DNA of 64,000 bases from Candidatus Pacearchaeota archaeon (GTDB taxonomy: Archaea; Nanobdellota; Nanobdellia; UBA10117; JAFCGI01). The position numbers and the translations under genes were made by a program. Below are positions 2,225 through 53,391 of the stretch, in pieces. The notes below the pieces were generated by a model. That model had not been told where the DNA came from, did no database searches, and saw nothing but the letters and a program-made list of their open reading frames with translations. Location of the stretch: assembly GCA_017608235.1 (NCBI GenBank), contig JAFCGI010000002.1:44425-108424 (forward strand), given 5' to 3'. The first letter of the stretch is position 1. Each line of letters begins with the position of its first letter.

Positions 2225-3439
2225 TTAATCCTTCTTCCTTAAAGCATCAACCGGCTTTAATCCAGCTGCATTTCTTGCAGGCATCACCCCTGAAATTATA
2301 CCTACAACCATAGAAAATAATAATGCGCCTCCTATTAGCCAAGGAGAAGTATAAATACTAAATGTAAATACTTGTAAACTACCTGCATAAAGCTCTACAA
2401 GTTTAGCTAATCCTAATCCAATACTAACTCCCAAAACTCCACCTATAAAACCTAATACAGCTGACTCTATTAAGAAAATAAACAAAATCTGTTTATTAGT
2501 AGCACCAATAGATTTCATTATTCCAATTTCTGTAGTTCTTTCAAGAACATTTGTATACATAGTATTAGTTATTCCAATCCCGCCAATAATTAAAGAAATA
2601 AATCCTATTCCCACAACAACTAAAATAATAACTGAAAACAACTGACTATATACTCTCATCAGTTCTTCAGAAGTTTGCACTCCAAAATCTTCTTCCCCTT
2701 CTTTAACTCCACGATGTTTTCTAAGCTTCGCTTCTATCTCTTCTGCAACATCCGCTACTTTCCTATTTGGTTCAACTTCCACAATAATTGTACTAATCGC
2801 ATCAGGTTCATCAAACAATTCCCGAGCAGTACTTAAAGGAATATACATCTGATTATCATCCTGATTATTTCCAATCGGAGTAAATCTTCCCACAACTTTA
2901 AACTCTCTATTCTCAATCATAATTTTATCTCTCAGAGATATAGCCTTCTTAAATAAACCAGCATCTGTTCCCTGTAAATATCCAATCATTACACTATATT
3001 TATCATTTTTAGTAGGATACTTTCCTTCAAGCAAATCAATAGTTGCAAAAGCTTCCACAAATCTTTCTGCATTCTCAGCAGGTAAACCAATTACCCAAAA
3101 ATATTTAACATCATCTTCATATTCAATTTTTGCAGACTTAAACAACATAGGATCTGCAAAAGCTACACCATTAACTTTTTCCACAACATCCAAATCAGAT
3201 TTATCTAATGTCTGGGTAAATGCTCCTAATGCACTCATATCCTGCCCAGGAAATATAAACAACTTATTGATCCCCATTGCCTCAAACTGATCACTAATAG
3301 TCTTATCCATACCTAATCCAAGAGATAATAAAGAAACAATAGCAGCAACTCCAATAACAATCGCAATGACTGTAAGAAAACTTCTAGTTTTCCTATCCCA
3401 TAAACTTCCTAATGCTAATTTAAAATACTCTCTCATCAC
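2225..3439 (-). CDS. ABC transporter permease, MacB/FtsX family
   Basis: 404 aa with an N-terminal TM helix, a large extracytoplasmic domain and a C-terminal FtsX-type TM bundle. It overlaps the upstream paralogue by 4 nt. Confidence 0.85.
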   Translation of the reverse strand: MMREYFKLALGSLWDRKTRSFLTVIAIVIGVAAIVSLLSLGLGMDKTISDQFEAMGINKLFIFPGQDMSALGAFTQTLDKSDLDVVEKVNGVAFADPMLFKSAKIEYEDDVKYFWVIGLPAENAERFVEAFATIDLLEGKYPTKNDKYSVMIGYLQGTDAGLFKKAISLRDKIMIENREFKVVGRFTPIGNNQDDNQMYIPLSTARELFDEPDAISTIIVEVEPNRKVADVAEEIEAKLRKHRGVKEGEEDFGVQTSEELMRVYSQLFSVIILVVVGIGFISLIIGGIGITNTMYTNVLERTTEIGIMKSIGATNKQILFIFLIESAVLGFIGGVLGVSIGLGLAKLVELYAGSLQVFTFSIYTSPWLIGGALLFSMVVGIISGVMPARNAAGLKPVDALRKKD

Positions 3440-4659
3440 TCATACCTCAATGAATCCATAGGATTAAGTTTTGCTGCCTTATATGCAGGCAATGATCCTG
3501 AAACCATACCTATACAAAATGAAAACAATAAAGATCCAAATATTAACATTGGCGAAAAAACTGCACTTAACAAAGTTATTCCATAGACTATAGCTCCAAC
3601 CTGAACAATAGCATAACTCATACCAATCCCAAGTAACAAACCTAGTATTCCTCCACTAAGTCCAATCAAACCTGCCTCAAATAAAAAAATACTCATGATA
3701 TGCCAGTTCTTAGCTCCAATCGCTTTCATAATACCTATATCCCTAGTCTGCTCAATTACAGAAGTATACATTGTATTCATTATACCAATTCCACCAACAA
3801 GCAAAGAAATAGCAGCAATCCCTACCAAAATAACCTGGATTAAAGTTATTATTGCAGTAAATCCCTGCACTATATTCTGCGCAAGATCAACTGTAAAATC
3901 TTCATCACCTTCTTCTAGACCATGATCTTTTCTAAGATCTTTTTTTATAGCTTCAGCAACAACACTAGGATCAAATCCTTTCTTAACTTTTACAACAATT
4001 ATAGAAACTTCATCTGGTTCATCAAACAAATCTCTAGCAGTATCTAAAGTTATCCTAAATAATCCATCATGTATAGGACTTCCACTTTTTTGCTGCACAC
4101 CTACAATACTAAACTTAATATCATCTATAAAGATCTTATCTCCTAATTTTATCTCTTTATCAAAAGTAGATCGAGAAGCAGCATATCCTACTATTGCTTT
4201 ATGAGCATCTCCAGGGCCTAGTTGCCTTCCATGTTCAACTTTATAAAAATCTATTTCTTGAAGCTGCTCCCTAATCTCAGATTCAGTAGACGCAGCCACA
4301 ACATTAGCATACTTCACTTGATCTCTATATTTAATTTGTGCAGTTCTCATAAGAATTCCAGTAGCTAACTCTACTCCATTAACATCTCTTACAATTTCAA
4401 CATCACTATCATAAAGCTTAGCAGCAGTAACCTCTGACCCAGAACCCCCTGCAGCAAACCCCCCACCTGGAGTAATAAGAATTTTATCAGTTCCCAAACT
4501 CTTAAACAAATCATCAACTGTAGTCTGCATACCAGATCCTATAGAAATCAAACTTACTACTAATGCTATACCAATAACAATAGAAACAATCGTAAGCCAA
4601 GATCTGAGCTTCCTATGCCTCATCCTTCGGATTGCAAATTTAAAAAAGCTCTCTATCAT
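3436..4659 (-). CDS. ABC transporter permease, MacB/FtsX family (second paralogue)
   Basis: 407 aa with the same architecture as 2225-3439 and a similar conserved C-terminal segment (..IGIMKAIGAKNW.. versus ..IGIMKSIGATNK..). Confidence 0.85.
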   Translation of the reverse strand: MIESFFKFAIRRMRHRKLRSWLTIVSIVIGIALVVSLISIGSGMQTTVDDLFKSLGTDKILITPGGGFAAGGSGSEVTAAKLYDSDVEIVRDVNGVELATGILMRTAQIKYRDQVKYANVVAASTESEIREQLQEIDFYKVEHGRQLGPGDAHKAIVGYAASRSTFDKEIKLGDKIFIDDIKFSIVGVQQKSGSPIHDGLFRITLDTARDLFDEPDEVSIIVVKVKKGFDPSVVAEAIKKDLRKDHGLEEGDEDFTVDLAQNIVQGFTAIITLIQVILVGIAAISLLVGGIGIMNTMYTSVIEQTRDIGIMKAIGAKNWHIMSIFLFEAGLIGLSGGILGLLLGIGMSYAIVQVGAIVYGITLLSAVFSPMLIFGSLLFSFCIGMVSGSLPAYKAAKLNPMDSLRYE

Positions 4660-4690: not shown

Positions 4691-5941
4691 TTATTTTTTC
4701 TTCTTATAGTATTTTTTATAATAGAACCATCCGCCAGCTATAGCAATAATGAATATCAAAAAGTAAACTCCATTATAATTTCCCTGAACCAATCCTAGTT
4801 TAGATAATTCACCAGAAGTATATATTCTCAAATTAATATCTTTATAGTCTGTATGAAGCTTATTAAAATTATCTTTATAATTTATTTTAAATCTTATTGG
4901 AATCTCACCCTTAACCTTTCCAATATTTATCTTAAACTCTGCAGTCTCATAATCATCAGAATCTATATTACCAATGTATACTTTATTATTAGACACTAAA
5001 GAATATTGATCTGAATCCAATATTTCCACATCTAAAAAGCTAACTTTAGTAAGACCTTTATTTGATATGCTTAACACAACATCGCCAGTCATGCCCTTAG
5101 TAAAATAACCTTCCGCAGGTTCTAAAGAATACAATAAATCTGGTTGCTCATCAACAACTAATGCTAAATTATCTGATCTTGTAATTTCATTACCTGCAGC
5201 ATCAGAATAAGATACATCTAATGGAATCTTATACACTTGAGATACTGCATTTCCTTCAACAATAATATCAAATACAACATCTCTAGATTCTCCAACAGAT
5301 AATGCTCTAATAGTTTTTTCTGATATTCCATTCAAAGGCGCAAATGGTATATCTTCTCCAGATAAATCCAATGCTAAAGAAATATCTTTTATGTCTGAGT
5401 CTGCATTATTCCTCATAGTAAGTATGATTTTTGCAATATCTCCAGGACTTAACCTTTCTGGTTCATATCTTACAGTAACAAAATCCAAAACAGGATTTGG
5501 AGTAGTTACAGACATAGTAATTGGTATAGATATAATACTTCTGCCACTACTACCTATTTTATATTTCAGATTCAAATCATAATCTCCTTCTAAAGCCTTA
5601 GAATCCACTCTAATCTCATACTCAACCAAAATTTCCTGACTAGGATTAATACTAGAAATTATTTTAGTTCCATTATCCCCAGGATCAAATGAAAAAGGAT
5701 ATTCCTCTTCTAACATTAAATAAACATTATTTAATTGTTTAGAACCTACATTCTTTAACTTAAGCCAAACCTTAACATATTGTCCAGGCTCTGCAGGAAA
5801 AGGCTCATACTTCATCTGTTCTACTTTCAAATAATAATTATATATATATTCATTTGTAGCAGCTAATGCTGGAGTTCCAGCTATCCCAAAAATAAATATG
5901 CTTAACAATATCAGCACACTACTTCGCCTTTCCATAACCAT
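4691..5941 (-). CDS. Secreted/anchored beta-sandwich repeat protein (CARDB / COG1361 S-layer-like type) of the ABC operon
   Basis: Signal/anchor MERRSSVLILLSIFIFGIAGTPALA; repeated modules such as PGQYVKVWLKLKNVGSKQLNNVYL and PGDIAKIILTMRNNADSDIKDISL; C-terminal TM helix plus a KKYYKKKK tail. The start is placed at Met22 of the track ORF, so it overlaps the end of the ATPase gene. Confidence 0.6.
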   Translation of the reverse strand: MVMERRSSVLILLSIFIFGIAGTPALAATNEYIYNYYLKVEQMKYEPFPAEPGQYVKVWLKLKNVGSKQLNNVYLMLEEEYPFSFDPGDNGTKIISSINPSQEILVEYEIRVDSKALEGDYDLNLKYKIGSSGRSIISIPITMSVTTPNPVLDFVTVRYEPERLSPGDIAKIILTMRNNADSDIKDISLALDLSGEDIPFAPLNGISEKTIRALSVGESRDVVFDIIVEGNAVSQVYKIPLDVSYSDAAGNEITRSDNLALVVDEQPDLLYSLEPAEGYFTKGMTGDVVLSISNKGLTKVSFLDVEILDSDQYSLVSNNKVYIGNIDSDDYETAEFKINIGKVKGEIPIRFKINYKDNFNKLHTDYKDINLRIYTSGELSKLGLVQGNYNGVYFLIFIIAIAGGWFYYKKYYKKKK

Positions 5942-6686
5942 TTTTTTCCTTTTCAGCCCAAACAAATTTTTTATATTGCTCTTTACTTTTCCTAATTTTA
6001 CCATCTTTTATATTATATATCTTTTCGTCCTTCGCATAAGTAGCAATATATGGATCATGAGTAACCATAATTATGGTTTTTTTCTGTTCTTCATGCAATT
6101 TAATGAAAATATCCATAATAATCTTACCTGTTCTTGAATCAAGATTTCCAGTAGGCTCGTCCGCTAATATAATCTCAGGGTTATTAGCTAATGATCTTGC
6201 TATAGCAACTCTCTGTCTTTCACCACCACTCATCTCACTAGGTTTATGAGTAATCCTATCCCCTAAATTTACCATCCTCAATAACTCTATAGCTCTTTTT
6301 TCCTTTTCAGTTTGAGGAATCCCTTGAAAAGTCATAGGTAACATCACATTCTCTAATGCTGTTAATGTTCCTATCAAATTAAAAGTCTGAAACACAAATC
6401 CAATTTTTTGTCCACGAATATTTGCTAGATTACTCTCTGTAAGTTTAGATATATCATATCCTTCCAAAAAAACCTTACCTCTTGAAGGCACATCCAATGC
6501 ACCTATTATAGCCATAGCAGTACTCTTTCCACTACCAGATGGCCCCATAATAGCAATAAATTCATTCTTATAAACATCTAAACTAACTCCACGAAGGGCA
6601 TCCACTCTTACATTACCCATCATATAAGTCTTCCAAACATCCCTAAGACTAATTATTGGTTTGCCTCCTCTACTAATATCAGCCAT
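5919..6686 (-). CDS. ABC transporter ATP-binding protein (MacB/LolD-like)
   Basis: Walker A GPSGSGKST, signature LSGGERQRVAIARSL, Walker B ILADEPTGNLD and H-loop VTHD. Confidence 0.9.
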   Translation of the reverse strand: MADISRGGKPIISLRDVWKTYMMGNVRVDALRGVSLDVYKNEFIAIMGPSGSGKSTAMAIIGALDVPSRGKVFLEGYDISKLTESNLANIRGQKIGFVFQTFNLIGTLTALENVMLPMTFQGIPQTEKEKRAIELLRMVNLGDRITHKPSEMSGGERQRVAIARSLANNPEIILADEPTGNLDSRTGKIIMDIFIKLHEEQKKTIIMVTHDPYIATYAKDEKIYNIKDGKIRKSKEQYKKFVWAEKEKNGYGKAK

Positions 6687-6749: not shown

Positions 6750-6837
6750 TGGACCGGTCGGGATTTGAACCCGAGGCCTCTTGCTTTTTCGACAAAATAT
6801 GCGAAGCAAGCGATCTACCGAACTGATCTACCAGCCC
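6750..6837 (-). tRNA. tRNA-Ala (anticodon CGC) with a 14-nt intron at 37/38
   Basis: Reverse complement folds as acceptor GGGCUGG/CCGGUCC+A with the alanine identity pair G3:U70, D arm GAUC-AGUUCGGUA-GAUC, anticodon stem CUUGC/GCAAG with loop UUCGCA[UAUUUUGUCGAAAA]A, and T arm UCGGG-UUCAAAU-CCCGA. Confidence 0.85.
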
Positions 6838-8109: not shown

Positions 8110-8126
8110 ATCCATAATATACATTA

Positions 8127-8692: not shown

Positions 8693-11062
8693 ATGGAAAA
8701 CATCAGCGGAAAGCAGAAATTTGCTTTACGAAAAACAATCAAAGAATTAGAAAACTATCGAGCTAGACATACTGAGCTCGTTTCTGTGTATATTCCTAAA
8801 GGTTATGCTATCATTAAAATTATTCAACAACTTCAGCAAGAACAAGGCACTGCTGAAAACATCAAGTCAAAAACCACTAAGAAAAATGTTATTAGCGCCT
8901 TGGAAAAGATGATTCAGCATCTCAGAATCTATAAAAAAACTCCTGAAAATGGTCTTGCAGTATTTTCAGGAAATGTCTCAGAAAGAGAAGGTGCTCAAGA
9001 CATAAGAGTTTGGGGAATAGAACCTCCAATGCCTCTAAACATACGTATGTATAAATGTGATCAAATATTCTATCTAGATCCACTAAAAGATATGTCCAAA
9101 CCAAAAACTGCATATGGTTTAATTGTAATGGACCGAAGAGAAGGTGACATAGCACTACTAAAAGGCAAAACTATAATCACATTATCAAGATTAAGGTCTG
9201 CTGTTCCTGGAAAATTTCGTGCAGGAGGTCAATGTTTAACTCAAGATTCTCTAGTACAAATGTCTAATGGAGATATAGTACAAATTAAAGATGTTCATAC
9301 AAATCTCAAATCTGCAGACTTTTTAAACTTTAAACACACAGATACAAAAACTATAGATAAATGGAAGACAGAAAAAAACAATATATATAAAATAATTACA
9401 AAAAATCCAAGGAACGAAATTATTTGTTCCAAAGATCACTTATTTTTTGTAAGAGAAGATAAAATCATACAAAAACCTGCTTCCGAATTAACCACTAAAG
9501 ACCATTTAATATTACCAGAAAAATTAGAAATATTTGGTAAAATTCAAAAAATTAAAACCTATTCTAATAAAAAAATAAAAACTCCTAAAATTCTAAACGA
9601 AGAATTAGCACAAATAGTAGGATATTATCTTAGTAAGGGAAATATCGATGATTCAAGAATATATTTTTCAGAAGGAAATAAAGAATTAGCAGAATACTAT
9701 CTCAATATATGCAAAAATCTATTCAGCGCAAATACAAATATAAGATTTAGAGAAAATAAAAAATATTATGAAATCAAAATATATAGCAGACCAATTGAAA
9801 AATTATTTAGAGAACAATTTCCAAAAAAACAAGGCATACCTACTAAAGTATTAAAATCTCCAAATAATGTCGTTGCTTCATTCTTAAAGGGGTTCTTTGA
9901 TGCCGAAGGATATGTTTCTAGCAGCAGAATAGCATTAGGTATAAATAATAAATTATTAGCAAAACAAATTCAACTTTTATTATTAAGATTTAGAATATTA
10001 GCATCACTTCAAGAATATAACAACAAAAGAAATCTGCATAGTAATAATCCTAGATATACTATAGTACTTTGTGGAAAAGAATCTTTCATTGAATTTCAAA
10101 AGAATATTGGTTTTTCCTTAATCAGTAAACAAAACAAATTACTAAACTTAATTAATAATAAAACAAACATTGATTACACAAGACAAATTTTAATCACAGG
10201 AAGAGAAATAAGAAAAATAATCGAAAATCATGGCTTTAAAATACATAAATTATTACCTAAGATTGCTCCAAGCGGTTTCTTTATAAATAAGAAGAACATG
10301 AGCAAACACATATTCAAAAAACAAATTCTTGATAAGGTACAAGAACATAAGCTCTTATATAAAGAACTCAAAAAAATATATAACAATCCATTTATTCCAG
10401 CTAAAATAAGTAAAATAGAAAAATACAATCAAAATACAAAAATGTTTGATATCTCTACAGAATCAGAAAATTTCATAGCAAATGGAATTTTTGTTCATAA
10501 TAGTGCAGCAAGATTCGCAAGAGTCAGAGAAAACCTAGCCAAAGATTTCTACAAAAAAATTGGCGAAGAAGCAAATAAAGAATTTGCAGAAGTAGAAGAA
10601 CTTCAAGGAATAATCATTGGCGGTCCAGGACCAACAAAAGAGGACTTTGCTCATGGAAACTTTCTAAGCACAAATATAAAAAAGAAAATCCTAGGTATAA
10701 AAAATATCTCATATACTGGAGAATTCGGACTAAAAGAGCTTGTAGATAAAAGTGAAGATCTCCTGGAAAAAGAAGATATTATTAAAGAAAAAAAGATTCT
10801 AAATAGACTATTTGAACTTCTAAGCACACAACCAAATCATGTATCTTATGGAAAAGAGGATATTAAAAAAGCCATAAAAATGGGTGCTGTTGACACACTA
10901 ATCATCTCAGAAAAGCTAGAAACCAAAGAAATAGAAGAACTAATTGATACTGCAGAAGAATTCGGTGGGGAAATAGAAATAGTCTCAGATGAAACTAGAG
11001 AAGGTGTCCAGCTATTAAGCATAGGTGGACTAGCAGCTATTCTAAGATATCCTATAACATAA
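8693..11062 (+). CDS. prf1: Peptide chain release factor aRF1, interrupted by an intein
   Basis: NIKS codon-recognition motif (TAENIKSKTTKKN); GGQ at codons 178-180 (nt 9224-9232); GGQ|intein|SAARFARVRE restores the conserved GGQSAxRFxR. The exteins total 366 aa. Confidence 0.9.
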   Translation: MENISGKQKFALRKTIKELENYRARHTELVSVYIPKGYAIIKIIQQLQQEQGTAENIKSKTTKKNVISALEKMIQHLRIYKKTPENGLAVFSGNVSEREGAQDIRVWGIEPPMPLNIRMYKCDQIFYLDPLKDMSKPKTAYGLIVMDRREGDIALLKGKTIITLSRLRSAVPGKFRAGGQCLTQDSLVQMSNGDIVQIKDVHTNLKSADFLNFKHTDTKTIDKWKTEKNNIYKIITKNPRNEIICSKDHLFFVREDKIIQKPASELTTKDHLILPEKLEIFGKIQKIKTYSNKKIKTPKILNEELAQIVGYYLSKGNIDDSRIYFSEGNKELAEYYLNICKNLFSANTNIRFRENKKYYEIKIYSRPIEKLFREQFPKKQGIPTKVLKSPNNVVASFLKGFFDAEGYVSSSRIALGINNKLLAKQIQLLLLRFRILASLQEYNNKRNLHSNNPRYTIVLCGKESFIEFQKNIGFSLISKQNKLLNLINNKTNIDYTRQILITGREIRKIIENHGFKIHKLLPKIAPSGFFINKKNMSKHIFKKQILDKVQEHKLLYKELKKIYNNPFIPAKISKIEKYNQNTKMFDISTESENFIANGIFVHNSAARFARVRENLAKDFYKKIGEEANKEFAEVEELQGIIIGGPGPTKEDFAHGNFLSTNIKKKILGIKNISYTGEFGLKELVDKSEDLLEKEDIIKEKKILNRLFELLSTQPNHVSYGKEDIKKAIKMGAVDTLIISEKLETKEIEELIDTAEEFGGEIEIVSDETREGVQLLSIGGLAAILRYPIT
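9233..10501 (+). mobile_element. Intein (423 codons) with a LAGLIDADG homing-endonuclease domain, inserted after GGQ of aRF1
   Basis: It starts with Cys (CLTQDSLVQM), has a block B-like SKDH and two LAGLIDADG-type motifs (LAQIVGYYLSKGNID; FLKGFFDAEGYVS), and ends ..NGIFVHN followed by the +1 Ser. Confidence 0.85.
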
Positions 11063-43133: not shown

Positions 43134-46100
43134 TTATTTTTTATTTTTTTTAGTAATTTTTTTCTTTCTTGTAATTCCTATAAATAAAACTGCAACTAGA
43201 ATAACAATCACTATGCTTACAAACGATAATAGATTAAGATCAAACAAACTAATAAACCCATCAAGAGTTTCTTCAGTTTCCTCTCCACCCAATATTAGTT
43301 TTTTATCAAGCTTAGGCAATACTACTAACTTTGTGGAATTAATTAAATCATCAGACACTTCTTTATTCACAGTATAAATTATTTCTTTATCAACTAAATC
43401 AGAAAAGCTCCATCTTACAACAGGATCATCCTTTACAATTTCATAATCTGCTGTCCTAAAGGTAATTTCACCAGCAGTGCTAGCAATATCTTTTGGTATT
43501 GTCTCCACTATATAGAGCTCTTCAGAAGAATCTAAACTGATAGTCTTCTTAAACATAGTTATTTTTCCTGTGTTTCCAGAAAGATATTTAACATCCAAAA
43601 CCTTAGTATTTACATCTACACTAACTTTATCTTTAAGCCTTGCAGCTTCAGAAACATAATTTTGTTTTTCAGAATCATCTAAACCATCTTTAACTACAAT
43701 ACTTTCAATAGATGCATCTATATCACTATCTTTCACACTCTGCGTAAATTCATCTGTAGAAATAATTTCTGCTTCAACAATTGTAGACTTCTTAATTTCT
43801 GTTAGTCTATTTTGTAACTTAGTAAATTCAAGTTCCTTTTTTGTATCAGAAATGCTTGAACCCTTCAAAGCTTTAAGCGCTGATTCAATAGATGCTATAT
43901 TAGTTTTAGTAAACTTAAGATCACCTTCTATATTCAAATCAGCAACTAAGTTTTTATCAATACTAGATACCTTAGTTAAATACTTATCTATATCATCTCC
44001 CAGATATTCAACACTAGTTATTTCATCATCAATTTCTTCTGTAACCGAAGAATCAGTAGTAGTTGTGCTAGGCGTAACAACTACATCATCCTCTGCAGTA
44101 GTAGTGGTGGTAGTACCTCCGCCACTATTACTAGACTCTTCCTCAATAGTTAGAGTAAAGGTTTCTGAATCAGTAGCACCATGATTATCCTGAACAGTTA
44201 TAGTTATAGAATAACTTCCCTCATCTGAACTATCAGGAGTAAACTCAATATTACCATTACCAGAATTTATATTAAACAAATTAGTATTATCTGAAAATGT
44301 TAAAGTATCTCCAGTAGGATCTGGATCAGTAGCACTAACATCTAAACTAAATTCTTCATTAACAGTTGCAGTTTGAGAACTAATACTACTTATTATAGGA
44401 GGATCATTCGTGTTATTAACATCTATATTCAAGTTCTTACTAACACTATTATAACCATCACTAACTGTAATATTAATAGTATTATTCCCCACATAATCAT
44501 TAGTAGGAGTCCAATTCAATAGCCCAGTACTTGAATTAATAATTCCTGAAATATTAGCACTATAAGTTAAGGTATCTGCATCATCATCACTAGCATTAAT
44601 ATCATACACTATAGCAGAATCCTCATTAACTGTCAGATTATCAAATGCATGACTAAAACTTGGTAGCCAAGGATCAACTACAATCAAAGTCCAAGATACT
44701 GAATCATTAAGACTTCCATCTGAAACTATCAATGTAACATTACGAGTTCCACCATTATGCAAACCAACATCATAAGTTAAATTTTGTTCTGTAGAATTAA
44801 GTTCACCCTCAAAATACCAATTATACAACAAAGTAACATTATCCACATCACTTGCACTTGCATTAAAGAATATTGTATTATTCTCTGTCAGATAAATGGT
44901 TTGATTCGTAGTACTGTTTATTGTAGAATTATCCCAATACCAAGAATCAATTACAGGCGCATCATTAGTATTTTCTATAGTAATAACAAATACCTCACTA
45001 ATATTCACATTACCATCTGTAATATTAATTCTAACTCCCAAACTTCCTACATCATCATTAGTTGGTGTCCAAGTAATAACTCCATTCGAACTAATATTAA
45101 ATTCTGAAACATTATCTAAAAATGTAATATTATCTCCATCAAGATCAGTAACATCTATATCATATGTAAACTCTTGATCTTCTATAGCAGTCTGATCTTG
45201 CAAAGCTGGATTAAAGAAAGGTGCATTATTTGGATCTGTTGAATTTAAAGTAATATCTCTTGTACTAGAAACTCCTAATTTTCCTTCTGTTCTATTTCCA
45301 ATAATTCTATATGTAAAATCTCCAGAAACATCTGTCTTATTAATATACCAATTTTTTAAACTAGAGTTACTCATACTTATATTAGTAGTGCCATCCCATT
45401 CTAACCAAGCTTCTCTTAGATCCCGATCACTCGTAATATTAACAAAAATCCAAGTAGTATTCAATTTACTTTTGTGTGAGGGTGTAGGACTAACAATCAT
45501 AATCTCTGGAGCAAATAAACCAAGAGTGGTTGCATTATCACTAGTCTGATTCAAATTTCCAGCATCATCTGCAGATTTCAAAGTTAAATTATATTCTGTA
45601 TCTGCACTAAGTCCTGTTGCATTATAATAACTAATATTACTTGTTAAATTAACCTTAAATACACTATTCAACCAAACCTCTGTATGATCAAAATCAGTTT
45701 CTGAAGGATTAGTCCAATTCCAATAAATCCAAGTTTCATCTTTTGAGAGTTCTGCTAAACCAGCAGCAGCTGAAGTAGGAGTATCATCTAAAAACTTTAT
45801 TGCTGCCAGAATATCTATTCTCGGAAATACTAGACTATTTTTAGAATCTGTAACATTAACACCTTTATTCTTAAGAACAGTTCTAATCTCTCCAGGGTCT
45901 ATAGTCACGCCTTCTAACCTCTCATGCTGGAAAATAAGTGCTGCAGCTCCTCCAACAAATGGAGCAGCCATAGAAGTTCCACTTCCAGACAAATATCCAG
46001 AACTATGACAATTAGTACATGATCCTGTTGGAACTGTTGAAACAACCTTGCATCCTGGTGCTAATAAATCTAAAATCTCATCACTATTTACAAAATTAGG

Positions 46101-47153
46101 TATATTATCTTCAGTAGTACCTTCAGAACCATCATCAACTGCACCAACAGAAGTAACATTAGCAAGACAGGCTGGATAACTTATACCATCATCAAAACCA
46201 CTATTACCAGATGAAGCCACAACAAAAATACCTGCAGCAGTTGCATTATTTATTGCGCTTGTTGTAGCAGAATATGTGCTTGCAGGACAACTAGAAAGAT
46301 TATGTTCTCCACTATCTCCTAAACTCATTACTATAACAGAAATATTAAACTTACTTGCATTATTCACACACCAATCTATTCCAGATGCTATATTTGAAAA
46401 ATCACCTCTTCCACTAGCATTAAGTGCTTTAATTGCTACAATCTTAGCATCAAATGCTATTCCTTTGTTATTACCAGATATTCCATTTCCAGCTGCAATC
46501 CCTGCAACATGAGTTCCATGTCCATCATCATCAAAAGGATTTGCATCTGGAGTTGTGCATCCTCCTCCATCACTTCCACAAAAATCATAACCACTTATAA
46601 CTTTAGAACAGTTACCAGCCAGAAATTCCTCTTCTGTACAAGAACCAAATTCAGTATGCGTATAGTCAATTCCACTATCTATAACACAAATAGTTTCTCC
46701 TGCCCCAGTAATATTTAAACCCTGAAGATTTCTAAGCCATACATCATCAGCATTAATTAGAGAATTTGCTTCTGCTCTATGAGCTACAGCAATCCCTGGT
46801 TTATATATTCTTAATACATTAGGATCATTAGCTAATTTAGCTAGTCCTTGCGCGCTAACTTTTCCACTAATAGCTTCTACATTAGAAAATTTATACTTTA
46901 ATTCAAAATCTTCTTCCATAAGATCTGAAAGAACATTCTCCTGCTTAACAGCAATAGATGTACTTGCTTCCGAACCACTAGATCCTGATCTTGTTCCACT
47001 AGTATCTTCCTTAAGCATAATAATAACATCTACCTTAGAATTCTTATCTAAATCCTCAAAAACATTATCATCTATACTTGCTGCTATCACTACTTGCAAG
47101 CTCACTAATAAAAAAACACTCATTAATATTAATAGTGTTATTCTCTTACTCAT
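43134..47153 (-). CDS. Membrane-anchored multidomain subtilisin-like serine protease (S8) with FN3, cadherin-like and PKD adhesion modules
   Basis: Signal peptide, I9-like propeptide, and catalytic triad D159 (VIDSGIDYTH), H212 (HGTHVAG) and S394 (SGTSMAAP). These are followed by an FN3-like module, three clear cadherin-like repeats (..ITWTPTNDDVG..NTNDAPVI) plus one degenerate segment, a PKD-like module, a poly-Thr linker, a C-terminal module, a TM helix and a KKKITKKNKK tail. Confidence 0.85.
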   Translation of the reverse strand: MSKRITLLILMSVFLLVSLQVVIAASIDDNVFEDLDKNSKVDVIIMLKEDTSGTRSGSSGSEASTSIAVKQENVLSDLMEEDFELKYKFSNVEAISGKVSAQGLAKLANDPNVLRIYKPGIAVAHRAEANSLINADDVWLRNLQGLNITGAGETICVIDSGIDYTHTEFGSCTEEEFLAGNCSKVISGYDFCGSDGGGCTTPDANPFDDDGHGTHVAGIAAGNGISGNNKGIAFDAKIVAIKALNASGRGDFSNIASGIDWCVNNASKFNISVIVMSLGDSGEHNLSSCPASTYSATTSAINNATAAGIFVVASSGNSGFDDGISYPACLANVTSVGAVDDGSEGTTEDNIPNFVNSDEILDLLAPGCKVVSTVPTGSCTNCHSSGYLSGSGTSMAAPFVGGAAALIFQHERLEGVTIDPGEIRTVLKNKGVNVTDSKNSLVFPRIDILAAIKFLDDTPTSAAAGLAELSKDETWIYWNWTNPSETDFDHTEVWLNSVFKVNLTSNISYYNATGLSADTEYNLTLKSADDAGNLNQTSDNATTLGLFAPEIMIVSPTPSHKSKLNTTWIFVNITSDRDLREAWLEWDGTTNISMSNSSLKNWYINKTDVSGDFTYRIIGNRTEGKLGVSSTRDITLNSTDPNNAPFFNPALQDQTAIEDQEFTYDIDVTDLDGDNITFLDNVSEFNISSNGVITWTPTNDDVGSLGVRINITDGNVNISEVFVITIENTNDAPVIDSWYWDNSTINSTTNQTIYLTENNTIFFNASASDVDNVTLLYNWYFEGELNSTEQNLTYDVGLHNGGTRNVTLIVSDGSLNDSVSWTLIVVDPWLPSFSHAFDNLTVNEDSAIVYDINASDDDADTLTYSANISGIINSSTGLLNWTPTNDYVGNNTINITVSDGYNSVSKNLNIDVNNTNDPPIISSISSQTATVNEEFSLDVSATDPDPTGDTLTFSDNTNLFNINSGNGNIEFTPDSSDEGSYSITITVQDNHGATDSETFTLTIEEESSNSGGGTTTTTTAEDDVVVTPSTTTTDSSVTEEIDDEITSVEYLGDDIDKYLTKVSSIDKNLVADLNIEGDLKFTKTNIASIESALKALKGSSISDTKKELEFTKLQNRLTEIKKSTIVEAEIISTDEFTQSVKDSDIDASIESIVVKDGLDDSEKQNYVSEAARLKDKVSVDVNTKVLDVKYLSGNTGKITMFKKTISLDSSEELYIVETIPKDIASTAGEITFRTADYEIVKDDPVVRWSFSDLVDKEIIYTVNKEVSDDLINSTKLVVLPKLDKKLILGGEETEETLDGFISLFDLNLLSFVSIVIVILVAVLFIGITRKKKITKKNKK

Positions 47154-47170: not shown

Positions 47171-47467
47171 TTATTCAGCAAAAACTGCAGCACATTGGTT
47201 ATTCACACATTTACAACTACCATAGCCACAATCTAAAGTGCCAGGTTCACAAATCTGGGTACATGCAACACCAACACAATCTGGTTTATTCTCTATGCTT
47301 ATACATGCAGTAGCATGACAGCAAGAATCTTGCACACAATCAGAATCTGCTTCACAATACAAAGTATCCCTAAACATATCCTTATTTGCATAAGTTGTTG
47401 CAAAGATTATAATAATAGCAAATATTGCTATAAACACTAATACAAACATATTAGATTCTTCATCCAT
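47171..47467 (-). CDS. Anchored 12-cysteine mini-protein
   Basis: N-terminal TM helix (FVLVFIAIFAIIIIFATTYA) followed by 12 Cys within ~57 residues (YCEADSDCVQDSCCHATACISIENKPDCVGVACTQICEPGTLDCGYGSCKCVNNQC). Confidence 0.5.
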   Translation of the reverse strand: MDEESNMFVLVFIAIFAIIIIFATTYANKDMFRDTLYCEADSDCVQDSCCHATACISIENKPDCVGVACTQICEPGTLDCGYGSCKCVNNQCAAVFAE

Positions 47468-47570: not shown

Positions 47571-48902
47571 CTATAGATCCTTCCGCTCCTTTTCTTTCTT
47601 CGCCTTACTCTTTCTTCTCACAAAAGAAATCACTATGTAAATAAACAATAACATAAGGATTATACTAATCAAAAATCCAAGACTTATTGCTTTAAATTCA
47701 GTTAAACAATCACCTGGGCAATTTGCATTATTTTCTCCACTCTCACAAACCTTATTACCACAAAATGGCCCTTCTCTAACTGCTTTGTTATCTACTATAG
47801 TATTAGACTCTATCTTATCTATTTCCTTTTTAACAATATAGCTTACTTCAGCAGTAGATCCTTCAGCTAAATTAGCGATATACCATCTTACAATAGGATC
47901 TGCTTGAATTACTTCTGGCTGAATTCCTGGAAATGCAAGTTCTGCTATGCTCGCTGCAACACTTTTTGGAATTACTTCTACAATCTCAACATCCTTCATA
48001 TTTTCTTGAGCAGTAACCACAATTCTTATCTCAGAAACTTTATTTATAGCACCTGTATCTTTACTCTTAACTTCATACACATTCAAATCTGTTTTAATAT
48101 TAACCTCTCCAGATTCTCCTGATGTGATAGCATCTCTGATTTTCTCAAATATCTCTATTGTATTATCATCAGTTACTGAATTAAGCGCATCATCAATATT
48201 TCCTATGGTTACTGTTGTTTCCTTACTTAATTCACCAATCTTAGTAACTTCTACATCTTCAGGAGTTATCTCTTCCATGCCTATAGACCTAGGATCAACA
48301 CCTGCAATAATATCCTCTACCTTATCTTCATCTGTAATAATTTCTTGCTTTGGTTGAATAACCTCTTCCTCTGGCTCTTCAGTTTCATCAATAGGAGCTG
48401 TGCCAGTTGGTGTTGTTACTTCTTCACTACCACCGCCACCACCATTTTCTTCCTCACATGCAGAATCTGTACTATGAGTTTCTCCAGATTCACAGATACC
48501 ATTTCCATTAATCGCAGTCCCTGAAGCTACCAGCAAATCTACTTCAGATATGCCTCCAGGCCTCCAAGTAACACTGCTTGGAGTAGTAGTAGCTAAAGCA
48601 CCTCCAACATAAAACAATATAGCCTTACCTTCATCATCTGATACTGAACTAACAATCAACTTCTGAGTATCAGGATCTGAACCTCCACCATATGCCCCAT
48701 CACTAGTCATAGTAAAACTAGCTTTCTGCTGTCCAGATATTTCAGCAGTTATCTCCACACCACTAGGAACATCACTGGTTCCATGCAGTACAGTTCCATA
48801 AAAAGCATGAGGTAAGACTGGAGGAGAATCAGCATAGACTCCTACTAAAATTATTGAGAACATTAATGAAACAAAGATCATCAAACCAAACAACTTTTTC
48901 AT
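47571..48902 (-). CDS. Anchored surface protein sharing a C-terminal module with the subtilase
   Basis: Signal peptide, an N-terminal beta-rich domain, two C-x-SGE...C motifs, an acidic linker, the module IVEVIPKSVAASIAELAFPGIQPEVIQADPIVRW..., a TM helix and a basic tail. Confidence 0.6.
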   Translation of the reverse strand: MKKLFGLMIFVSLMFSIILVGVYADSPPVLPHAFYGTVLHGTSDVPSGVEITAEISGQQKASFTMTSDGAYGGGSDPDTQKLIVSSVSDDEGKAILFYVGGALATTTPSSVTWRPGGISEVDLLVASGTAINGNGICESGETHSTDSACEEENGGGGGSEEVTTPTGTAPIDETEEPEEEVIQPKQEIITDEDKVEDIIAGVDPRSIGMEEITPEDVEVTKIGELSKETTVTIGNIDDALNSVTDDNTIEIFEKIRDAITSGESGEVNIKTDLNVYEVKSKDTGAINKVSEIRIVVTAQENMKDVEIVEVIPKSVAASIAELAFPGIQPEVIQADPIVRWYIANLAEGSTAEVSYIVKKEIDKIESNTIVDNKAVREGPFCGNKVCESGENNANCPGDCLTEFKAISLGFLISIILMLLFIYIVISFVRRKSKAKKEKERKDL

Positions 48903-48949: not shown

Positions 48950-48984
48950 ATAATAAAAAATACAAAAACAAGGGCTAAGCCCCC
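48950..48984 (-). terminator. Hairpin plus T-run after the giant-protein gene
   Basis: The minus strand reads GGGGCTTAGCCC followed by TTGTTTTTGTATTTTTTATTATCT, starting 13 nt after the stop at 48997. Confidence 0.4.
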
Positions 48985-48996
48985 GAATTTATTTAT

Positions 48997-51900
48997 CTAA
49001 TCACACCTTTGTCCAGTTAGTGTATCTGCTCTTTCCATTAGTACCCAATATCCTTCATACTCATCCATATTACTTCCAGAATCATCTTCATACTTGCTAG
49101 ATGCTTCTAAGTAATAATTTGCATTTGGAGGACTTGGACTCAATATCTTAGACAATCCCTTATAATCATTAGATTCTCCAGATACAACTTCAAGATCATC
49201 TAATGCAGTAGTCCATTTAGTACTAATATTTTCATTTAAACTTACTAAATTCCATCCACTTGTTAGACTTCTTGAAGGATATACACAATTTGGTCCTGGT
49301 GTAGCCTTCTTATAGAAGAATGCAAGCTCATCTGCTTCTGTTATATTTATGTAAATAGCTTCCAATGGATCTAATGTATAATTACTTGTTACCTGTACCC
49401 ATCCATTATCATATGTATACGCAATAGACCAATTCAACCCATCATAATATGCTATTACATCTGACCAAGTACTATTATCAAGCACTCTTGGCGTAGAAAT
49501 TAAATTCCATCCACTACTTAAATCTATATGCTCATCTGGTGCTCCTGTTGAAGTTACTGCTGCTGTTCCCACAGCATTACCTGCATAATCATAGAATTTA
49601 TTAGTTTGCGCACCTAGTGTTGCACTAAATGTTGCAAATCCATCTAAAGTATATACTAAAGTATCATTCGCACTAACTGTTGGATTTCCTGCAACTATTG
49701 ATGCACTACCACCAGCTCCATCAGTATAACTTACAAAGGTTTCATTTATAGTATTTCCAGCAGTTCCAGATCCATCTGAATTATATGTTTTAGTTCCAGA
49801 ATGCACTATATTCTCATTGAAAACCACCGTAACCAAGGTTCCATTTATTGTTACACTAGTTATATTTGGTCCAGTAATATCTATAGTTTGTGAATCTGCA
49901 TTTGTTACATTAGCATCTGTTGGTCCATCATTATTTGATGCTACAAAAACTCCTTCTTCTCCAGCATCATAATCTCCATCGCTGTCCGAATCTATCAAAA
50001 TTGGAATTTGGAACCTTAGAGTTGCACCATCAGTAACACCTGCACCAGTATCTACTGAAACAAATATTCTTAATCCAGATGCAGGAATTGCTTCTGATAG
50101 ACCAGTCCATATCCATCCATTTATTGATGCATCATATGATCCAGTTCCAGCACCTAATGCTGAATCATCTGATCCTGGTTCAAAAACACCATCACCATCA
50201 TCCACCCATGCTTTAACAGTCAATTCAGAACGATCTTGGTCGCCTATATTTTTTACAATAAATACATTCAGCTCATCTTCTGCTTTATCTGTTACATTTA
50301 CATTTGCACCAACATCATTATAGATATCTTCACTGCTATCAAACGTATCATCTTCACTATCATCTACATATTTATAGGTAGTAGGGAAATCACATAAAGT
50401 AGTTCCTGCAGAGATACTATCTCCACCATTTACAACTACAGTATCTGCAATATCTGAGTATGTTAACTCACCTACATGATTTTCTAAAATAATATCTTCT
50501 CCAGTATTCCAATCAGAATTTGTATTTACATCATAGAATACAAGATTTGTGGTATTATCTAATAATGTAATTGTATCTCCTGCACTCATACCACTACAAT
50601 CTACATCTAAACTATCTGCGTCTAGTTTAGTATCTGCTGCAGCACTCCATGTAAACTCTCCAGCATAATTCTCTGTAATAATATCTTCTCCATTATCCCA
50701 TTCATTATTTGAATTTTCATCATTATATACTAAATTTCCAGTACCATCTAATAAAGCTAAAGTTGCTCCATTACTTATTGCACCACCTTCATCTAATATT
50801 TTAGTATCCGCAGTTCCATCAGAATATGTTAAGCCTCCATCAACAACTTCTTTACAAACATCATTAGTTGCAACAAATACTCCAGTACTTGTATGTACTA
50901 ATGGACCATCTGCATTGTTTGCAGTTGTCCAATCTCCATCAAGATCTGCACTACCTGATAAAAATATCGTATCTGTTGACTCTAAAGTAGTGTCTGCATC
51001 TCCAGATGTTTCCTGAATTATTGCTTCTCCAGTTGAATAATCTCCATCATTATTATCATCTGAAAAAGCAAGTCTTCTATCATTACTGCTTGATCCTGCA
51101 GTAAAGTCTAATAGATCACAAGTTCCTGATGTTTCTACTGTATCTCCTGTATTTAATTGTCCAGCAGTTCCACTAACAATTATTGCTTCTGTATTATCAT
51201 ATGCATCATCATGATCGTTGTCACAATATACTGCACTACTATTTAATAAAACTGCATCAATAACATCCCAATCCCCTGTTGCTTTTTGTAATCCTTGTGC
51301 AGTTATTGGAACATTTGCATCATTTGCTAAAGAATTTCCATCTCCCAAATCAATTAGGATTTCATAATCAGTATATGAGCTATCATGATCTCCATCCAAA
51401 TATCCTACTTCAGCATCATTTTGTATTCCTAGACCTGAATCTCCTGCATTCAAAGCACCAGTTCCATCTACTAAAACTTCATCTGCCCCAGCAGAATATG
51501 TGCTACTGCCAGCTGTTTCTTCAATATATAAATCTTCTCCATTATCTAAAAGTCCATCTGCATCAGAATCTACAAAAGCCCATTTATTTGTAACTTTAGT
51601 AGTAGCAGCTGCACTTCCTAACAAATATGTACCATCATTACCACCGTTATCTGTACAATCTTGATTAAGATCTACTCTTATTGCAGTAGGATTACTTAAA
51701 TCATCAGTACATAAATACACTCCATCTGCTGCATCATTATCATCCCAATCAACTTTATTATCTCCCATGGAAACTAAAGCATCCCCTTCACTATGAGAAT
51801 CACAAGTACCTTTATTTGTACTTGTTGAACCATCACAATCTGCTTCTGCATCTGCTGCAGAAGTATATACACCATCTTCATCATCATCTATAAAAATATC

Positions 51901-53223
51901 ATCTGTTCCAGCATCATATTCATTACCGCCGTCAGAATCATCAAACAATATATCGTCTCCTGCTACAAAGTTTTGGAAATCTCCGTCTCCAGATTTTATT
52001 ATTGCACCATTTGAGCTATTCATAATCAGCTCACCATCATCATATGCTCCATTGTTGCTTGACCCACTTTCTATAGCAGCTATTTCATTCGCAAATACTT
52101 TTGTGTCTGCCTCTCCGCTTTTAACAATTTCTCCATCATCCAAGTTACTATCAGAAGAAATAATTATTGATTCTTCCACATCATATGTATCTATACTATG
52201 TGAGTTATGTGTATCAGAATATTTATGATCTGATTGACTAAAAAAGCTAACTAAATCTGCATTCCCATTTACTAACACAGTATCCCAATCATCTAAAGTT
52301 CCATTTGTAGAGTTTATTATTGCTTCTCCAGAATCATACTGGGAATCATGATCATCATCTATCCAATAAATATTTGTAAAGTCAGCACTTAATGCATCTC
52401 CATGGCTTGGAGAATCTGCACCATTATAATAAGAACAATCATCTGCACTTGCAGGCGTATATTTAGAATCATTATCCAAATCTAGAACAATTGCTTCTCC
52501 AGTAGCATACGCTTGATCTCCACCTTCAAGAGAAAGTGTTGGATATGTACTAGTTGGAGCTAAAGGATTTAAAACATCACCAGCAGATTTTGAATCATCT
52601 GCTCCTGGAGAACCAGATGCAGCAGTTGCAGTACCATCTGCATCTACAACTGTATCTGCAGCGCTAGTCCAAACATCATCTCCATCATCATCTATTAAAA
52701 TACAATCTGAATTAACAAATGTTGTATCTGCTCCATTTATAGCAATTCTTTGAGATGGATTCACTGGGAATATATTTAATGCATCTCCAGCACTATATGT
52801 ATCTGAAGACCCACCAGTATATAATACATTATCTGAAGCACTAGTATATACTCCATCATTATCATCATCTACTATAATATCTGAATTTCCTTCTACATAT
52901 CCTGCAGAACAATTACCATCTTGTCTAGCAAACGCCTCTGCATGAATATTACCTAAAGATAAAAATGAAATTAAATCATCCCCAGTCCAAGAGGAAGTAG
53001 CTCCATTATGTATAAGAACATCTGCAGCAGCGCTGCCTGTAGCATTAGGCAATACAATATTTAATACAATTTTATTTGTTTTACTTGCCCCGATAGTATA
53101 TGCACTAACATCTTCTTTAACAACATTTGAAGCCTGAAAAGCAAAAACAAAATTTCCAGAAAAAGCTAAAACCAAAACCATTAATATAGCTATTATAATT
53201 TTTTTGTTTGAAATATCAAACAC
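48997..53223 (-). CDS. Giant secreted acidic repeat protein with many EF-hand/dockerin-like DxDxD...E loops
   Basis: Signal peptide (M)FDISNKKIIIAILMVLVLAFSGNFVFAFQA. At least 9 twelve-residue loops have D/N at positions 1, 3 and 5, an aromatic residue at 8 and Glu at 12 (for example DDDHDSQYDSGE, DNDHDDAYDNTE, DSDSDGDYDAGE), and 4 further loops are of the DDDxDGxYTSA(S/A)D type. There is no C-terminal TM helix. The only start is a GTG inside GGAGGTG. Confidence 0.7.
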   Translation of the reverse strand: MFDISNKKIIIAILMVLVLAFSGNFVFAFQASNVVKEDVSAYTIGASKTNKIVLNIVLPNATGSAAADVLIHNGATSSWTGDDLISFLSLGNIHAEAFARQDGNCSAGYVEGNSDIIVDDDNDGVYTSASDNVLYTGGSSDTYSAGDALNIFPVNPSQRIAINGADTTFVNSDCILIDDDGDDVWTSAADTVVDADGTATAASGSPGADDSKSAGDVLNPLAPTSTYPTLSLEGGDQAYATGEAIVLDLDNDSKYTPASADDCSYYNGADSPSHGDALSADFTNIYWIDDDHDSQYDSGEAIINSTNGTLDDWDTVLVNGNADLVSFFSQSDHKYSDTHNSHSIDTYDVEESIIISSDSNLDDGEIVKSGEADTKVFANEIAAIESGSSNNGAYDDGELIMNSSNGAIIKSGDGDFQNFVAGDDILFDDSDGGNEYDAGTDDIFIDDDEDGVYTSAADAEADCDGSTSTNKGTCDSHSEGDALVSMGDNKVDWDDNDAADGVYLCTDDLSNPTAIRVDLNQDCTDNGGNDGTYLLGSAAATTKVTNKWAFVDSDADGLLDNGEDLYIEETAGSSTYSAGADEVLVDGTGALNAGDSGLGIQNDAEVGYLDGDHDSSYTDYEILIDLGDGNSLANDANVPITAQGLQKATGDWDVIDAVLLNSSAVYCDNDHDDAYDNTEAIIVSGTAGQLNTGDTVETSGTCDLLDFTAGSSSNDRRLAFSDDNNDGDYSTGEAIIQETSGDADTTLESTDTIFLSGSADLDGDWTTANNADGPLVHTSTGVFVATNDVCKEVVDGGLTYSDGTADTKILDEGGAISNGATLALLDGTGNLVYNDENSNNEWDNGEDIITENYAGEFTWSAAADTKLDADSLDVDCSGMSAGDTITLLDNTTNLVFYDVNTNSDWNTGEDIILENHVGELTYSDIADTVVVNGGDSISAGTTLCDFPTTYKYVDDSEDDTFDSSEDIYNDVGANVNVTDKAEDELNVFIVKNIGDQDRSELTVKAWVDDGDGVFEPGSDDSALGAGTGSYDASINGWIWTGLSEAIPASGLRIFVSVDTGAGVTDGATLRFQIPILIDSDSDGDYDAGEEGVFVASNNDGPTDANVTNADSQTIDITGPNITSVTINGTLVTVVFNENIVHSGTKTYNSDGSGTAGNTINETFVSYTDGAGGSASIVAGNPTVSANDTLVYTLDGFATFSATLGAQTNKFYDYAGNAVGTAAVTSTGAPDEHIDLSSGWNLISTPRVLDNSTWSDVIAYYDGLNWSIAYTYDNGWVQVTSNYTLDPLEAIYINITEADELAFFYKKATPGPNCVYPSRSLTSGWNLVSLNENISTKWTTALDDLEVVSGESNDYKGLSKILSPSPPNANYYLEASSKYEDDSGSNMDEYEGYWVLMERADTLTGQRCD

Positions 53224-53391
53224 CTCCTTTTCAACGCTATCTAAGTTACGTTAGTTTTTTCCAAGAAACAGATATATATAAAGATTATTAGTCACTAATA
53301 AATAAGGAAGCAAATAGAGACTCTAGACTATATTTCCAACAATTAATAAAAATTAATAAAAAAATTAATAAAAAAAACAAATAAAATCAAA

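Follow-up and report, generated by a model that had tools for sequence, protein, structure and literature searches.

The 64-kb window analysed here, i.e. the whole stretch of 64,000 nucleotides from contig JAFCGI010000002.1 (Candidatus Pacearchaeota archaeon), holds a gene at 48997..53223(-), which a mechanical list of open reading frames (ORFs) gives with a GTG start, 1408 codons and a stop. Its product, hereafter the giant, is an acidic protein, as an earlier note on this DNA had it: Asp amounts to 14.0%, Ser to 9.9%, Gly to 9.7% and Lys plus Arg to 3.1% of its residues, and the net charge is -215. That note regarded the giant as built from calcium-type loops of two subtypes; what was found instead is an assembly of ~17 units of 35-55 residues, belonging to three related types (A, B and C, each with its own hidden Markov model, HMM), together with four non-repeat modules. 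The reading that we favour, with somewhat better than even confidence, is that the giant is a secreted, calcium-rigidified surface stalk or adhesin.

Self-BLAST of the giant returned the identity match only, and the unit HMMs were employed in its place. The type A HMM, seeded from the units of a relative of 2060 aa (P0004) which displays the repeat in clean form, and then iterated, finds copies in the giant with a best E of 1e-16, while the best copies of types C and B are at E 5e-18 and 1e-16, respectively. The repeat is thus real and periodic, as had been supposed. The three HMMs match one another weakly, and the unit types are therefore related; their consensus sequences are IRYADSNHNGQYDNGEAIINDTGADGILDSGDEIVTSGKADLKSF for type A, WAFYDADGDGAYDDGEDIYIENDAGDLTYSAGADTLVYDGGGLSAGDA for type C and EAVVIDLDADSVYTSAADTLIDADGSTTTGAGSADAISAGDAL for type B. 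In each long relative, the type A HMM finds 21-33 copies, most often spaced by 47-48 residues, within a range of ~44-61. The tandem duplication of some 60 residues pointed out in the earlier note was recovered between residues ~805-865 and 868-928, with 52% identity over 61 residues (E 8e-20). Concerning the rest of the 64 kb, the unit HMMs found no paralogue of the giant's modules in any other ORF.

From the N-terminus onwards (all coordinates of this and the next paragraph being on the reverse strand), the giant starts with a signal-peptide-like segment at residues 1-28 (53140..53223), made of KK, a hydrophobic core and VFA/FQ, which forms its single Kyte-Doolittle peak. The N-terminal module follows (residues 29-112; 52888..53139), with HMM matches in 88 of 169 family proteins and BLASTP matches of residues 1-190 to P0002, P0003, P0005 and P0006. 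Three type B units come next: the first at residues 115-149 (52777..52881; DDDNDGVYTSASD ... SAGDAL; E 4e-8 with the type B HMM), the second at 173-218 (52570..52707; E 2.7e-12) and the third at 243-278 (52390..52497; E 5e-8). They are followed by three type A units, of which the first, at residues 286-327 (52243..52368), reads YWIDDDHDSQYDSGEAII ... GNADLVSF and is matched by the type A HMM at E 1e-16, the second has a degenerate loop (333-377; 52093..52227; E 3.4e-10) and the third a short one (388-425; 51949..52062; E 1e-4). In the AlphaFold2 model described below, the predicted local distance difference test (pLDDT) score is ~90 for the first of these units and 81-93 for the second. A hybrid loop, FDDSDGGNEYDAGT, at residues 427-440 (51904..51945; E 4.6e-6 with the type C HMM over 427-465) runs into the fourth type B unit (441-483; 51775..51903; E 1e-16). 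Residues 484-547 (51583..51774) are a Cys-containing module common to 34 relatives and present as a tandem repeat in P0028 and P0029.

The second half of the array opens with type C unit 1 (548-596; 51436..51582; WAFVDSDADGLLDNGEDLYIEE ... TYSAGAD ... AGD; E 5e-18), then continues with a partial fourth A unit (607-634; 51322..51405; E 0.009) and with the fifth and sixth A units (665-707, 51103..51231, E 3e-16; and 720-762, 50938..51066, E 1e-13). Type C unit 2 (779-820; 50764..50889; E 1.4e-7) has lost its loop, whereas type C units 3 (831-884; 50572..50733; E 3e-15) and 4 (894-942; 50398..50544; E 2e-16) are the first and second copies of the tandem duplication. A partial unit, KYVDDSEDDTFDSSEDIY, closes the array at residues 951-974 (50302..50373); its HMM matches are weak (E 0.07-0.4), and the loop pattern is present. 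Next comes module b, a beta-rich module at residues 975-1125 (49849..50301), found in 153 of 169 family proteins and widespread in CPR-type (candidate phyla radiation) proteins of ~440 aa, with pLDDT 83-92 over 981-1080; it holds one more loop at residues 1078-1089 and a faint match to the Pfam family GEVED (E 0.28-0.35). A probably Ig-like spacer (1126-1229; 49537..49848), colinear with the Big_7 domain of relatives from Poribacteria and predicted with low AlphaFold2 confidence, leads to a Trp-rich C-terminal tandem domain (1230-1408; 49000..49536). The latter consists of two ...SGWNL[IV]S... halves, is likewise colinear with the Poribacteria relatives and modelled with low confidence, and has no match in Pfam; we infer that it is a candidate attachment domain.

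As for the order of these modules in the family, such CPR-type proteins of ~440 aa (P0082, P0084, P0085, P0095 and P0098) have the N-terminal module adjoining module b close to their N-terminal end. In the giant and in the long relatives these two modules are separated by the entire repeat array, which looks like an insertion into a single ancestral pair of domains.

All 13 loops quoted in the earlier note, nine of a main type and four of a second type, are present where it had placed them, and far exceed the counts in shuffled sequences. Nine instances of D-x-[DNS]-x-[DNS]-x-x-[YWFL]-x-x-x-E were counted in the giant, while 2000 whole-protein shuffles gave 0.12 on average and 2-3 at most; the main loop with its hydrophobic flanks is found 8 times (shuffle mean 0.01), and the second-type loop D-x-D-x-D-x-x-[YW]-T-[SP]-A 4 times (shuffle mean 0.00). 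Shuffling in blocks of 100 residues gave results in agreement. Several details of the first description had to be adjusted: the residues [DA]-I-[IY], said to follow each main loop, do so exactly in six of the nine and not in the other three, and position 8 is aromatic in eight of the nine. An x-[AGH]-GD-[ATS]-[LIV] motif had been placed after most loops; its slightly wider form x-[AGHST]-GD-[ATS]-[LIV] occurs exactly 5 times, 15-30 residues past a loop in 3 of them, and the A units of the giant are covered by another second motif, G-x-[AGC]-D-[LTF].

The conservation of the loop was calculated on 641 aligned A units from 46 proteins, and it supports, across the family, the DxDxDG/EF-hand ligand logic first recognised by eye in one sequence. 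Position 1 is D in 88% of the units (98% of the residues present), position 3 is N in 49% and D in 29%, and position 5 is N in 44%, D in 34% and S in 12%. Position 6 is G (36%), N (20%) or D (12%), position 8 is Y (73%) or F (21%), i.e. one of the two in 94%, and position 9 is D (45%), S (14%), T (14%) or N (11%), while G is found in 43% at position 11 and E in 96% at position 12. Positions 2, 4, 7 and 10 are free to vary, and the loop is followed by A or L, then I, then I or V. As read from this alignment, the A-unit loop is the canonical EF-hand ligand pattern except for its aromatic position 8. Loops of the Dx[DN]xDG type bind Ca2+ in a nearly identical manner across at least 16 structural contexts, strand-loop-strand included, and archaeal instances have been reported as rare (PMC3123361). 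When PDB sequences were searched with a single-unit profile, the best matches, all below threshold, were exclusively EF-type metal loops. On sequence grounds, Ca2+ binding by the loops of the giant is strongly indicated.

An AlphaFold2 prediction was made for residues 283-445, which comprise three A units, with an alignment of 37 unit triplets from relatives. The model has a mean pLDDT of 83.6 and a predicted template-modelling score of 0.74. Each unit is composed of four short strands, the first two of which enclose the loop, and DSSP assigns no helix in the 163 residues. As modelled, the unit has strands on both sides of an EF-type loop (strand-loop-strand) and is not an EF-hand or dockerin domain; the 'EF-hand/dockerin-like' label of the earlier note holds for the loop itself, whereas its flanks are predicted beta strands. 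A Foldseek search with this model gave nothing at E <3 in the PDB, nor at E <0.6 among predicted viral structures. As far as the three-unit model goes, the fold of the unit would thus be without a solved analogue. A second prediction, on residues 960-1408 with an alignment of 19 rows, is confident for 981-1080 (module b) only, and Foldseek with this model found nothing at E <0.2.

The sole hydrophobic segment of the giant is N-terminal (residues ~4-32 on the Kyte-Doolittle scale). It agrees with the signal peptide described in the earlier note, although the call is weaker than was stated there, being based on hydropathy and sequence only. The same note saw no transmembrane anchor and no sorting signal, which was borne out: no LPxTG, PGF or C-terminal transmembrane helix was found by pattern and hydropathy scans, no SLH domain with Pfam, and no type 1 secretion or sortase signal by pattern scan. 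A match to CHU_C, a type IX secretion signal, was discarded, as it was below the cut-off (E 0.008-0.12) and at the wrong position, inside a C unit. We infer that the giant is secreted. It carries 19 N-x-S/T sequons. Its isoelectric point (pI) is 4.05 vs. 9-10 for most other ORFs of the window, the exceptions including two secreted, membrane-anchored proteins encoded downstream; the acidity therefore belongs to the surface gene cluster and not to the proteome.

Upstream of the giant gene, a TATA-like box, TTTATATATA (53274..53283(-)), was read directly from the sequence ~50 nt before the start; it sits in a 168-bp divergent spacer common to the giant gene and nre, and its role as promoter is putative. 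A strong Shine-Dalgarno-like AAGGAGGTG, with the element GGAGGTG (53221..53229(-)), overlaps the listed GTG, which makes the start codon uncertain; the true start may lie a few codons, and at most 14, downstream of the GTG. Directly 3' of the stop codon, a hairpin followed by a T-run (48969..48985(-)) is likely the terminator.

The gene content of the window is archaeal, with TFIIB, an aRF1 gene with an intein, Nre, RNase J and FtsY, and its GC content is ~31%. The best matches of its glutamyl-tRNA synthetase, at ~50% identity, are in Woesearchaeota and Nanoarchaeia genomes, and the organism is therefore a DPANN archaeon.

Three co-directional surface-protein genes lie downstream of the giant gene, one of them coding for an S8 subtilase with Ig-like domains. 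The latter is a protein of 1339 aa (43134..47153(-)) with Big_9/He_PIG domains and 47 N-x-S/T sequons (3.5 per 100 residues). Another is a secreted protein of 443 aa (47571..48902(-)), which has in common with the subtilase a C-terminal module of ~165 residues (BLASTP E 4e-11) ending in a transmembrane helix and a Lys-rich tail; both proteins are acidic (pI 4.2-4.4). Between their genes, a 98-aa ORF (47171..47467(-)) combines an N-terminal hydrophobic segment with a Cys-rich tail (~12 Cys), without any match in Pfam.

Using HMMER over 1.84 billion representative proteins, 244 matches were obtained at E <=1e-3, of which 22 at E <=1e-30; most of them cover module b or the 430-600 region of the giant. 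A word-indexed homologue search with residues 960-1408 gave one match, and whole-protein scans of GTDB genomes and JGI metagenomes returned module-b relatives only. The full plan of the giant is matched by Poribacteria proteins of 1.5-2.5 kaa, which have the N-terminal module, 16-33 A units, module b, Big_7 and the Trp-rich C-terminus. P0002, P0003 and one Peribacteria protein carry three SLH domains at their end, and other relatives end in a transmembrane tail or in other tails. In Falkowbacteria (contig JACRNW010000001.1, genes ~8001-10640), the gene of the relative P0006 belongs to a series of six or seven genes for surface proteins (Big_1, Invasin_D3, Big_5), after which comes an S8 peptidase that has FG-GAP repeats. 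This arrangement echoes the S8 subtilase two genes downstream of the giant, and the family is thus paired with a subtilase in a bacterium as well.

A degenerate DNA pattern for the loop was found at more than 120 places in GTDB species genomes, where HMM scans of the loci identified mostly single units. Arrays of at least three A units were found in Poribacteria, Peribacteria, one Thermoplasmata chromosome and metagenome-assembled genomes (MAGs) labelled uncultured archaeon, uncultured bacterium and uncultured Bacteroides sp. Units also occur within proteins of other kinds. In a Methanofastidiosia MAG (L022:364-3549(-)), two or three are inserted in a 1062-aa S_layer_C protein (PF05124, E 6e-27). 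In an ANME-1 (Methanophagales) MAG (L118:3795-6437(-)), an AglB oligosaccharyltransferase contains, in its extracellular part, two units of type A (KYYDANGDGRYSKGEAIVADKD...), located between the core and the peripheral domains. The Thermoplasmata chromosome (CP070629.1, L134:1049-5662(+)) encodes a 1538-aa multihaem cytochrome c protein (Cytochrome_C7, GSu_C4xC__C2xCH) with five A and two C units, which suggests an extracellular electron-transfer protein on the same type of stalk. Since units are found in varied surface proteins of both archaea and bacteria, the unit is a mobile extracellular module. Judging from these searches, long arrays are rare and phyletically patchy, and not specific to DPANN; the restriction to DPANN implied by the earlier note does not hold, the family being patchy across bacteria and archaea.

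No significant match was found for the giant or its fragments in Pfam, NCBIfam or PDB sequence searches. Among described families, the nearest relative of the loop-plus-strand half of the unit appears to be GEVED (PF20009). When 38 unit triplets of Poribacteria relatives were scanned singly, 12 of them matched this family; the highest score, 27.1 bits against a cut-off of 24.4 (E 7e-6), spans positions 4-45 of the 78 in the profile. Fragments of the giant itself stay below the gathering cut-off of 24.4, at 10-12 bits (E 0.28-1.2). The likeness lies in an aromatic-x-D-x-[DN]-x-[DN]-G-x-[FY]-x-x-G-E-hydrophobic strand. However, the match covers only the first half of the GEVED profile (loop and following strands), and this in the relatives; the giant's unit is repeated in tandem, measures 45-55 residues and has a distinct second half, L-D-x-x-D-x-V ... 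G-x-A-D-L-x-x-F, whereas GEVED is a single 78-residue domain with the GEVED motif at its end. For these reasons we would not file the giant as a member. The family was defined from the NR3 region of CshA, a fibrillar adhesin of Streptococcus gordonii, and is counted as an adhesin stalk domain (PMC10952558). The proposal of a new calcium-type repeat scaffold survives the tests run, with the proviso that the unit is not wholly without relatives.

Compared with EF-hands, the loop has the same length of 12 residues, the same ligand positions (1, 3, 5, 9 and 12) and a Gly at position 6, as judged from the column frequencies of the 641 units and from the nine loops of the giant. In contrast, its flanks are predicted strands, there is no helix-loop-helix, the loops are unpaired, and position 8 is aromatic and not I, L or V. 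The Pfam EF-hand models have no match in the giant and match 2 of the 38 fragments of relatives (E 0.023); PROSITE PS00018, a scan suggested in the earlier note, gave 0 matches in the giant. Dockerin, thrombospondin type 3 and RTX repeats resemble the unit as Asp-rich, extracellular, Ca2+-binding repeats. Dockerin has no Pfam match in the giant at E <=1 and no loop-helix pairs are predicted; the thrombospondin type 3 pattern D-x-D-x-D-G-x-x-D-x-x-D and the RTX pattern G-G-x-G-x-D are both absent from the giant, and neither family is matched with Pfam. The giant could not be placed among the thrombospondin type 3, RTX, FG-GAP or dockerin repeats, as the earlier note had anticipated; its periodicity is significant, and no characterised repeat or S-layer family claims it, so that neither of the two outcomes named in that note as refuting it was obtained. 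A left-handed beta-helix, suggested by a single phmmer match to LpxA (E 1.1), was dropped as noise.

Taken together, this favours a secreted surface stalk or adhesin rigidified by calcium. Its surface location is suggested by the N-terminal hydrophobic segment, the acidity, the 19 sequons, the co-directional surface genes and the swapped anchors of the relatives (SLH, transmembrane tail), and the stalk or adhesin function by the closest Pfam family, GEVED, being an adhesin stalk domain. Of the traits of fibrillar adhesins, the giant presents an N-terminal hydrophobic segment and ~17 tandem units. According to this proposal, the giant would be exported by the DPANN archaeon and remain at the cell surface, where the units, lined up from the N-terminal cap (residues 29-112) to the beta-rich domain (975-1125), would make up an extended array of all-beta structure. 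Most units bear one 12-residue EF-type loop, D-x-[DN]-x-[DN]-G-x-[YFW]-[DSTN]-x-G-E, set between two short predicted strands, and each intact loop would bind one Ca2+ through the side chains of positions 1, 3, 5 and 12, the main-chain oxygen of position 7, and position 9 either directly or via water. With the Ca2+ available outside the cell, ion binding would fix the loops in place and offset the very high negative charge, resulting in a stiff stalk; without Ca2+, charge repulsion would loosen the array. The stalk would present for attachment the Trp-rich C-terminal domain (1230-1408), which is probably its attachment end, or the array itself, and the target is likely to be the cell envelope, a partner cell, or both.

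Stalk repeats rigidified by Ca2+ are known from bacterial adhesins, such as the B repeats of SdrD and the BIg repeats of RTX adhesins like MpIBP and SiiE. The likeness with these stalks concerns the mode of working only, i.e. tandem Ca2+-binding beta units that form a stiff extension bearing a distal domain: homology is undetectable, the units of the giant are half the size of an Ig-like domain, and the host is an archaeon. SdrD_B gave faint matches in 2 of the 38 triplets of relatives.

Several points weigh against a calcium-stiffened surface stalk. The units starting at residues 333, 388 and 779 have degenerate or missing loops. The giant is devoid of a recognisable anchor, so that release into the medium is possible, and the C-terminal 330 residues have pLDDT <50 in the AlphaFold2 prediction. 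No ligand-binding domain was recognised, the N-terminal module, module b and the C-terminal domain all being without family or fold match. Finally, none of the 244 relatives is characterised or functionally named, and no function can be transferred from them.

The best-surviving alternative, although unlikely, is that the giant is the S-layer protein proper of the archaeon, forming a two-dimensional lattice in which Ca2+ bridges the subunits. In size, acidity, signal peptide and sequons it agrees with S-layer proteins of archaea, and Ca2+-dependent S-layer assembly is common. Some relatives have C-terminal SLH domains, which usually serve to anchor S-layers in bacteria, and the Methanofastidiosia protein with inserted units belongs to an S-layer family. 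However, the giant itself has no match to S_layer_N/C, SLH or any other S-layer family in Pfam and NCBIfam, SLH domains also anchor many surface proteins that form no lattice, and long arrays of interchangeable units with swapped anchors resemble stalk proteins.

A further possibility, which we regard as improbable, is that the units are blades of integrin-like beta-propellers of the FG-GAP/VCBS type, the giant then being a string of propeller lectins or receptors and not a rod. Integrin-like calcium blades, which occur in extracellular proteins, likewise consist of ~50 residues with four strands, two of which flank a loop of the Dx[DN]xDG type (PMC3123361); in the giant, four short strands per ~47-residue unit and a loop between strands 1 and 2 recall this arrangement, and the starts of the units allow a 7 + 7 grouping. 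Propellers such as megalin YWTD, Elp2, RACK1 and a WD protein of viral origin are enriched among the leading Foldseek matches, but none of these is significant (E >=3, template-modelling score 0.12). Faint sequence signals point the same way, namely a triple-unit profile matching the propeller lectin 5mb4 at E 0.5 and one relative matching FG-GAP_3 at E 0.11, whereas the Pfam FG-GAP models find no match in the giant. When the 641 units were compared by hhalign with five FG-GAP units of a Falkowbacteria protein, a thin template, the probability was 0.3%. Moreover, the loop of the giant has 12 residues and ends in Glu, unlike the 9-residue integrin type, and the unit counts in the relatives (16-33) are not clear multiples of 7.

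It is very improbable that the giant serves mainly to hold cations, be it for storing Ca2+ at the surface, nucleating minerals or binding trivalent metals (lanthanides), without being structural. This idea draws on the net charge and the ~14 EF-type loops, and on a loop consensus that is almost that of engineered lanthanide-binding tags: when a single-unit profile was compared with PDB sequences, the best matches were such tags (YIDTNNDGAYEGDEL; 2lr2, 2rpv, 2ktr), together with calmodulin/CDPK loops, at E values of 0.5-3, not significant over 15 residues. The sequence YIDTNNDGWYEGDELLA is that of an engineered lanthanide-binding tag, a class counted with the EF-hand loops. Nevertheless, all EF loops bind lanthanides in vitro, which renders the resemblance unspecific; the conserved strands and hydrophobic positions and the ordered AlphaFold2 fold favour a structural repeat, and no metal-uptake or mineralisation genes are located near the giant gene. 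As a side reading, and a speculative one, the near-identity of the loop to these tags might reflect real binding of trivalent metals at the cell surface. Lastly, a low-complexity Asp-rich artefact or non-gene, thought of owing to the strong compositional bias, can practically be dismissed, as composition-keeping shuffles never came near the observed motif counts, the unit HMMs reach E 1e-16 and beyond, and there are 244 homologues, a confident AlphaFold2 model and a colinear multi-domain plan common to proteins of another domain of life.

Several other features of the window were noted. The aRF1 (peptide chain release factor) gene at 8693..11062(+) is split by an intein with a LAGLIDADG homing-endonuclease domain. 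Rfam reports two tRNAs of 111 and 88 nt, at 2073..2183(-) and 6750..6837(-), respectively, neither of which is reported by ARAGORN in bacterial mode; they are probably intron-containing archaeal tRNAs. Also, an ORF with a CARDB match (4691..6004(-)) and its neighbours at 2225..3439(-) and 3436..4659(-), encoding 404 and 407 aa, may constitute a second cell-surface gene cluster.

Beyond a calcium-rigidified stalk in a single archaeon, the unit might be the first example of a new fold, a 'beta-EF' repeat: tandem units of ~47 residues and four strands each, whose strands clamp an EF-type metal loop. Such a repeat would have moved among DPANN and CPR episymbionts, Poribacteria and several other archaeal lineages, where it would build Ca2+-switched stalks for holding partners or spacing envelopes; we put this forward as a tentative extension, more doubtful than otherwise. 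Asp-rich Ca2+-binding repeats that stiffen bacterial surface proteins are already known. What is seen here is a near-ideal EF-type loop in a strand-loop-strand repeat without Pfam model or PDB analogue, occurring in tandem arrays in a DPANN archaeon, CPR bacteria and Poribacteria, and as single units in S-layer, AglB and cytochrome proteins of archaea. If the proposal is true, a new family model would bring annotation to thousands of residues in 'hypothetical' surface proteins, and the unit would represent a compact natural metal-binding beta module, whose aromatic position 8 suits Tb3+ luminescence assays. It would also provide a candidate means for tiny episymbiotic cells to project attachment domains.

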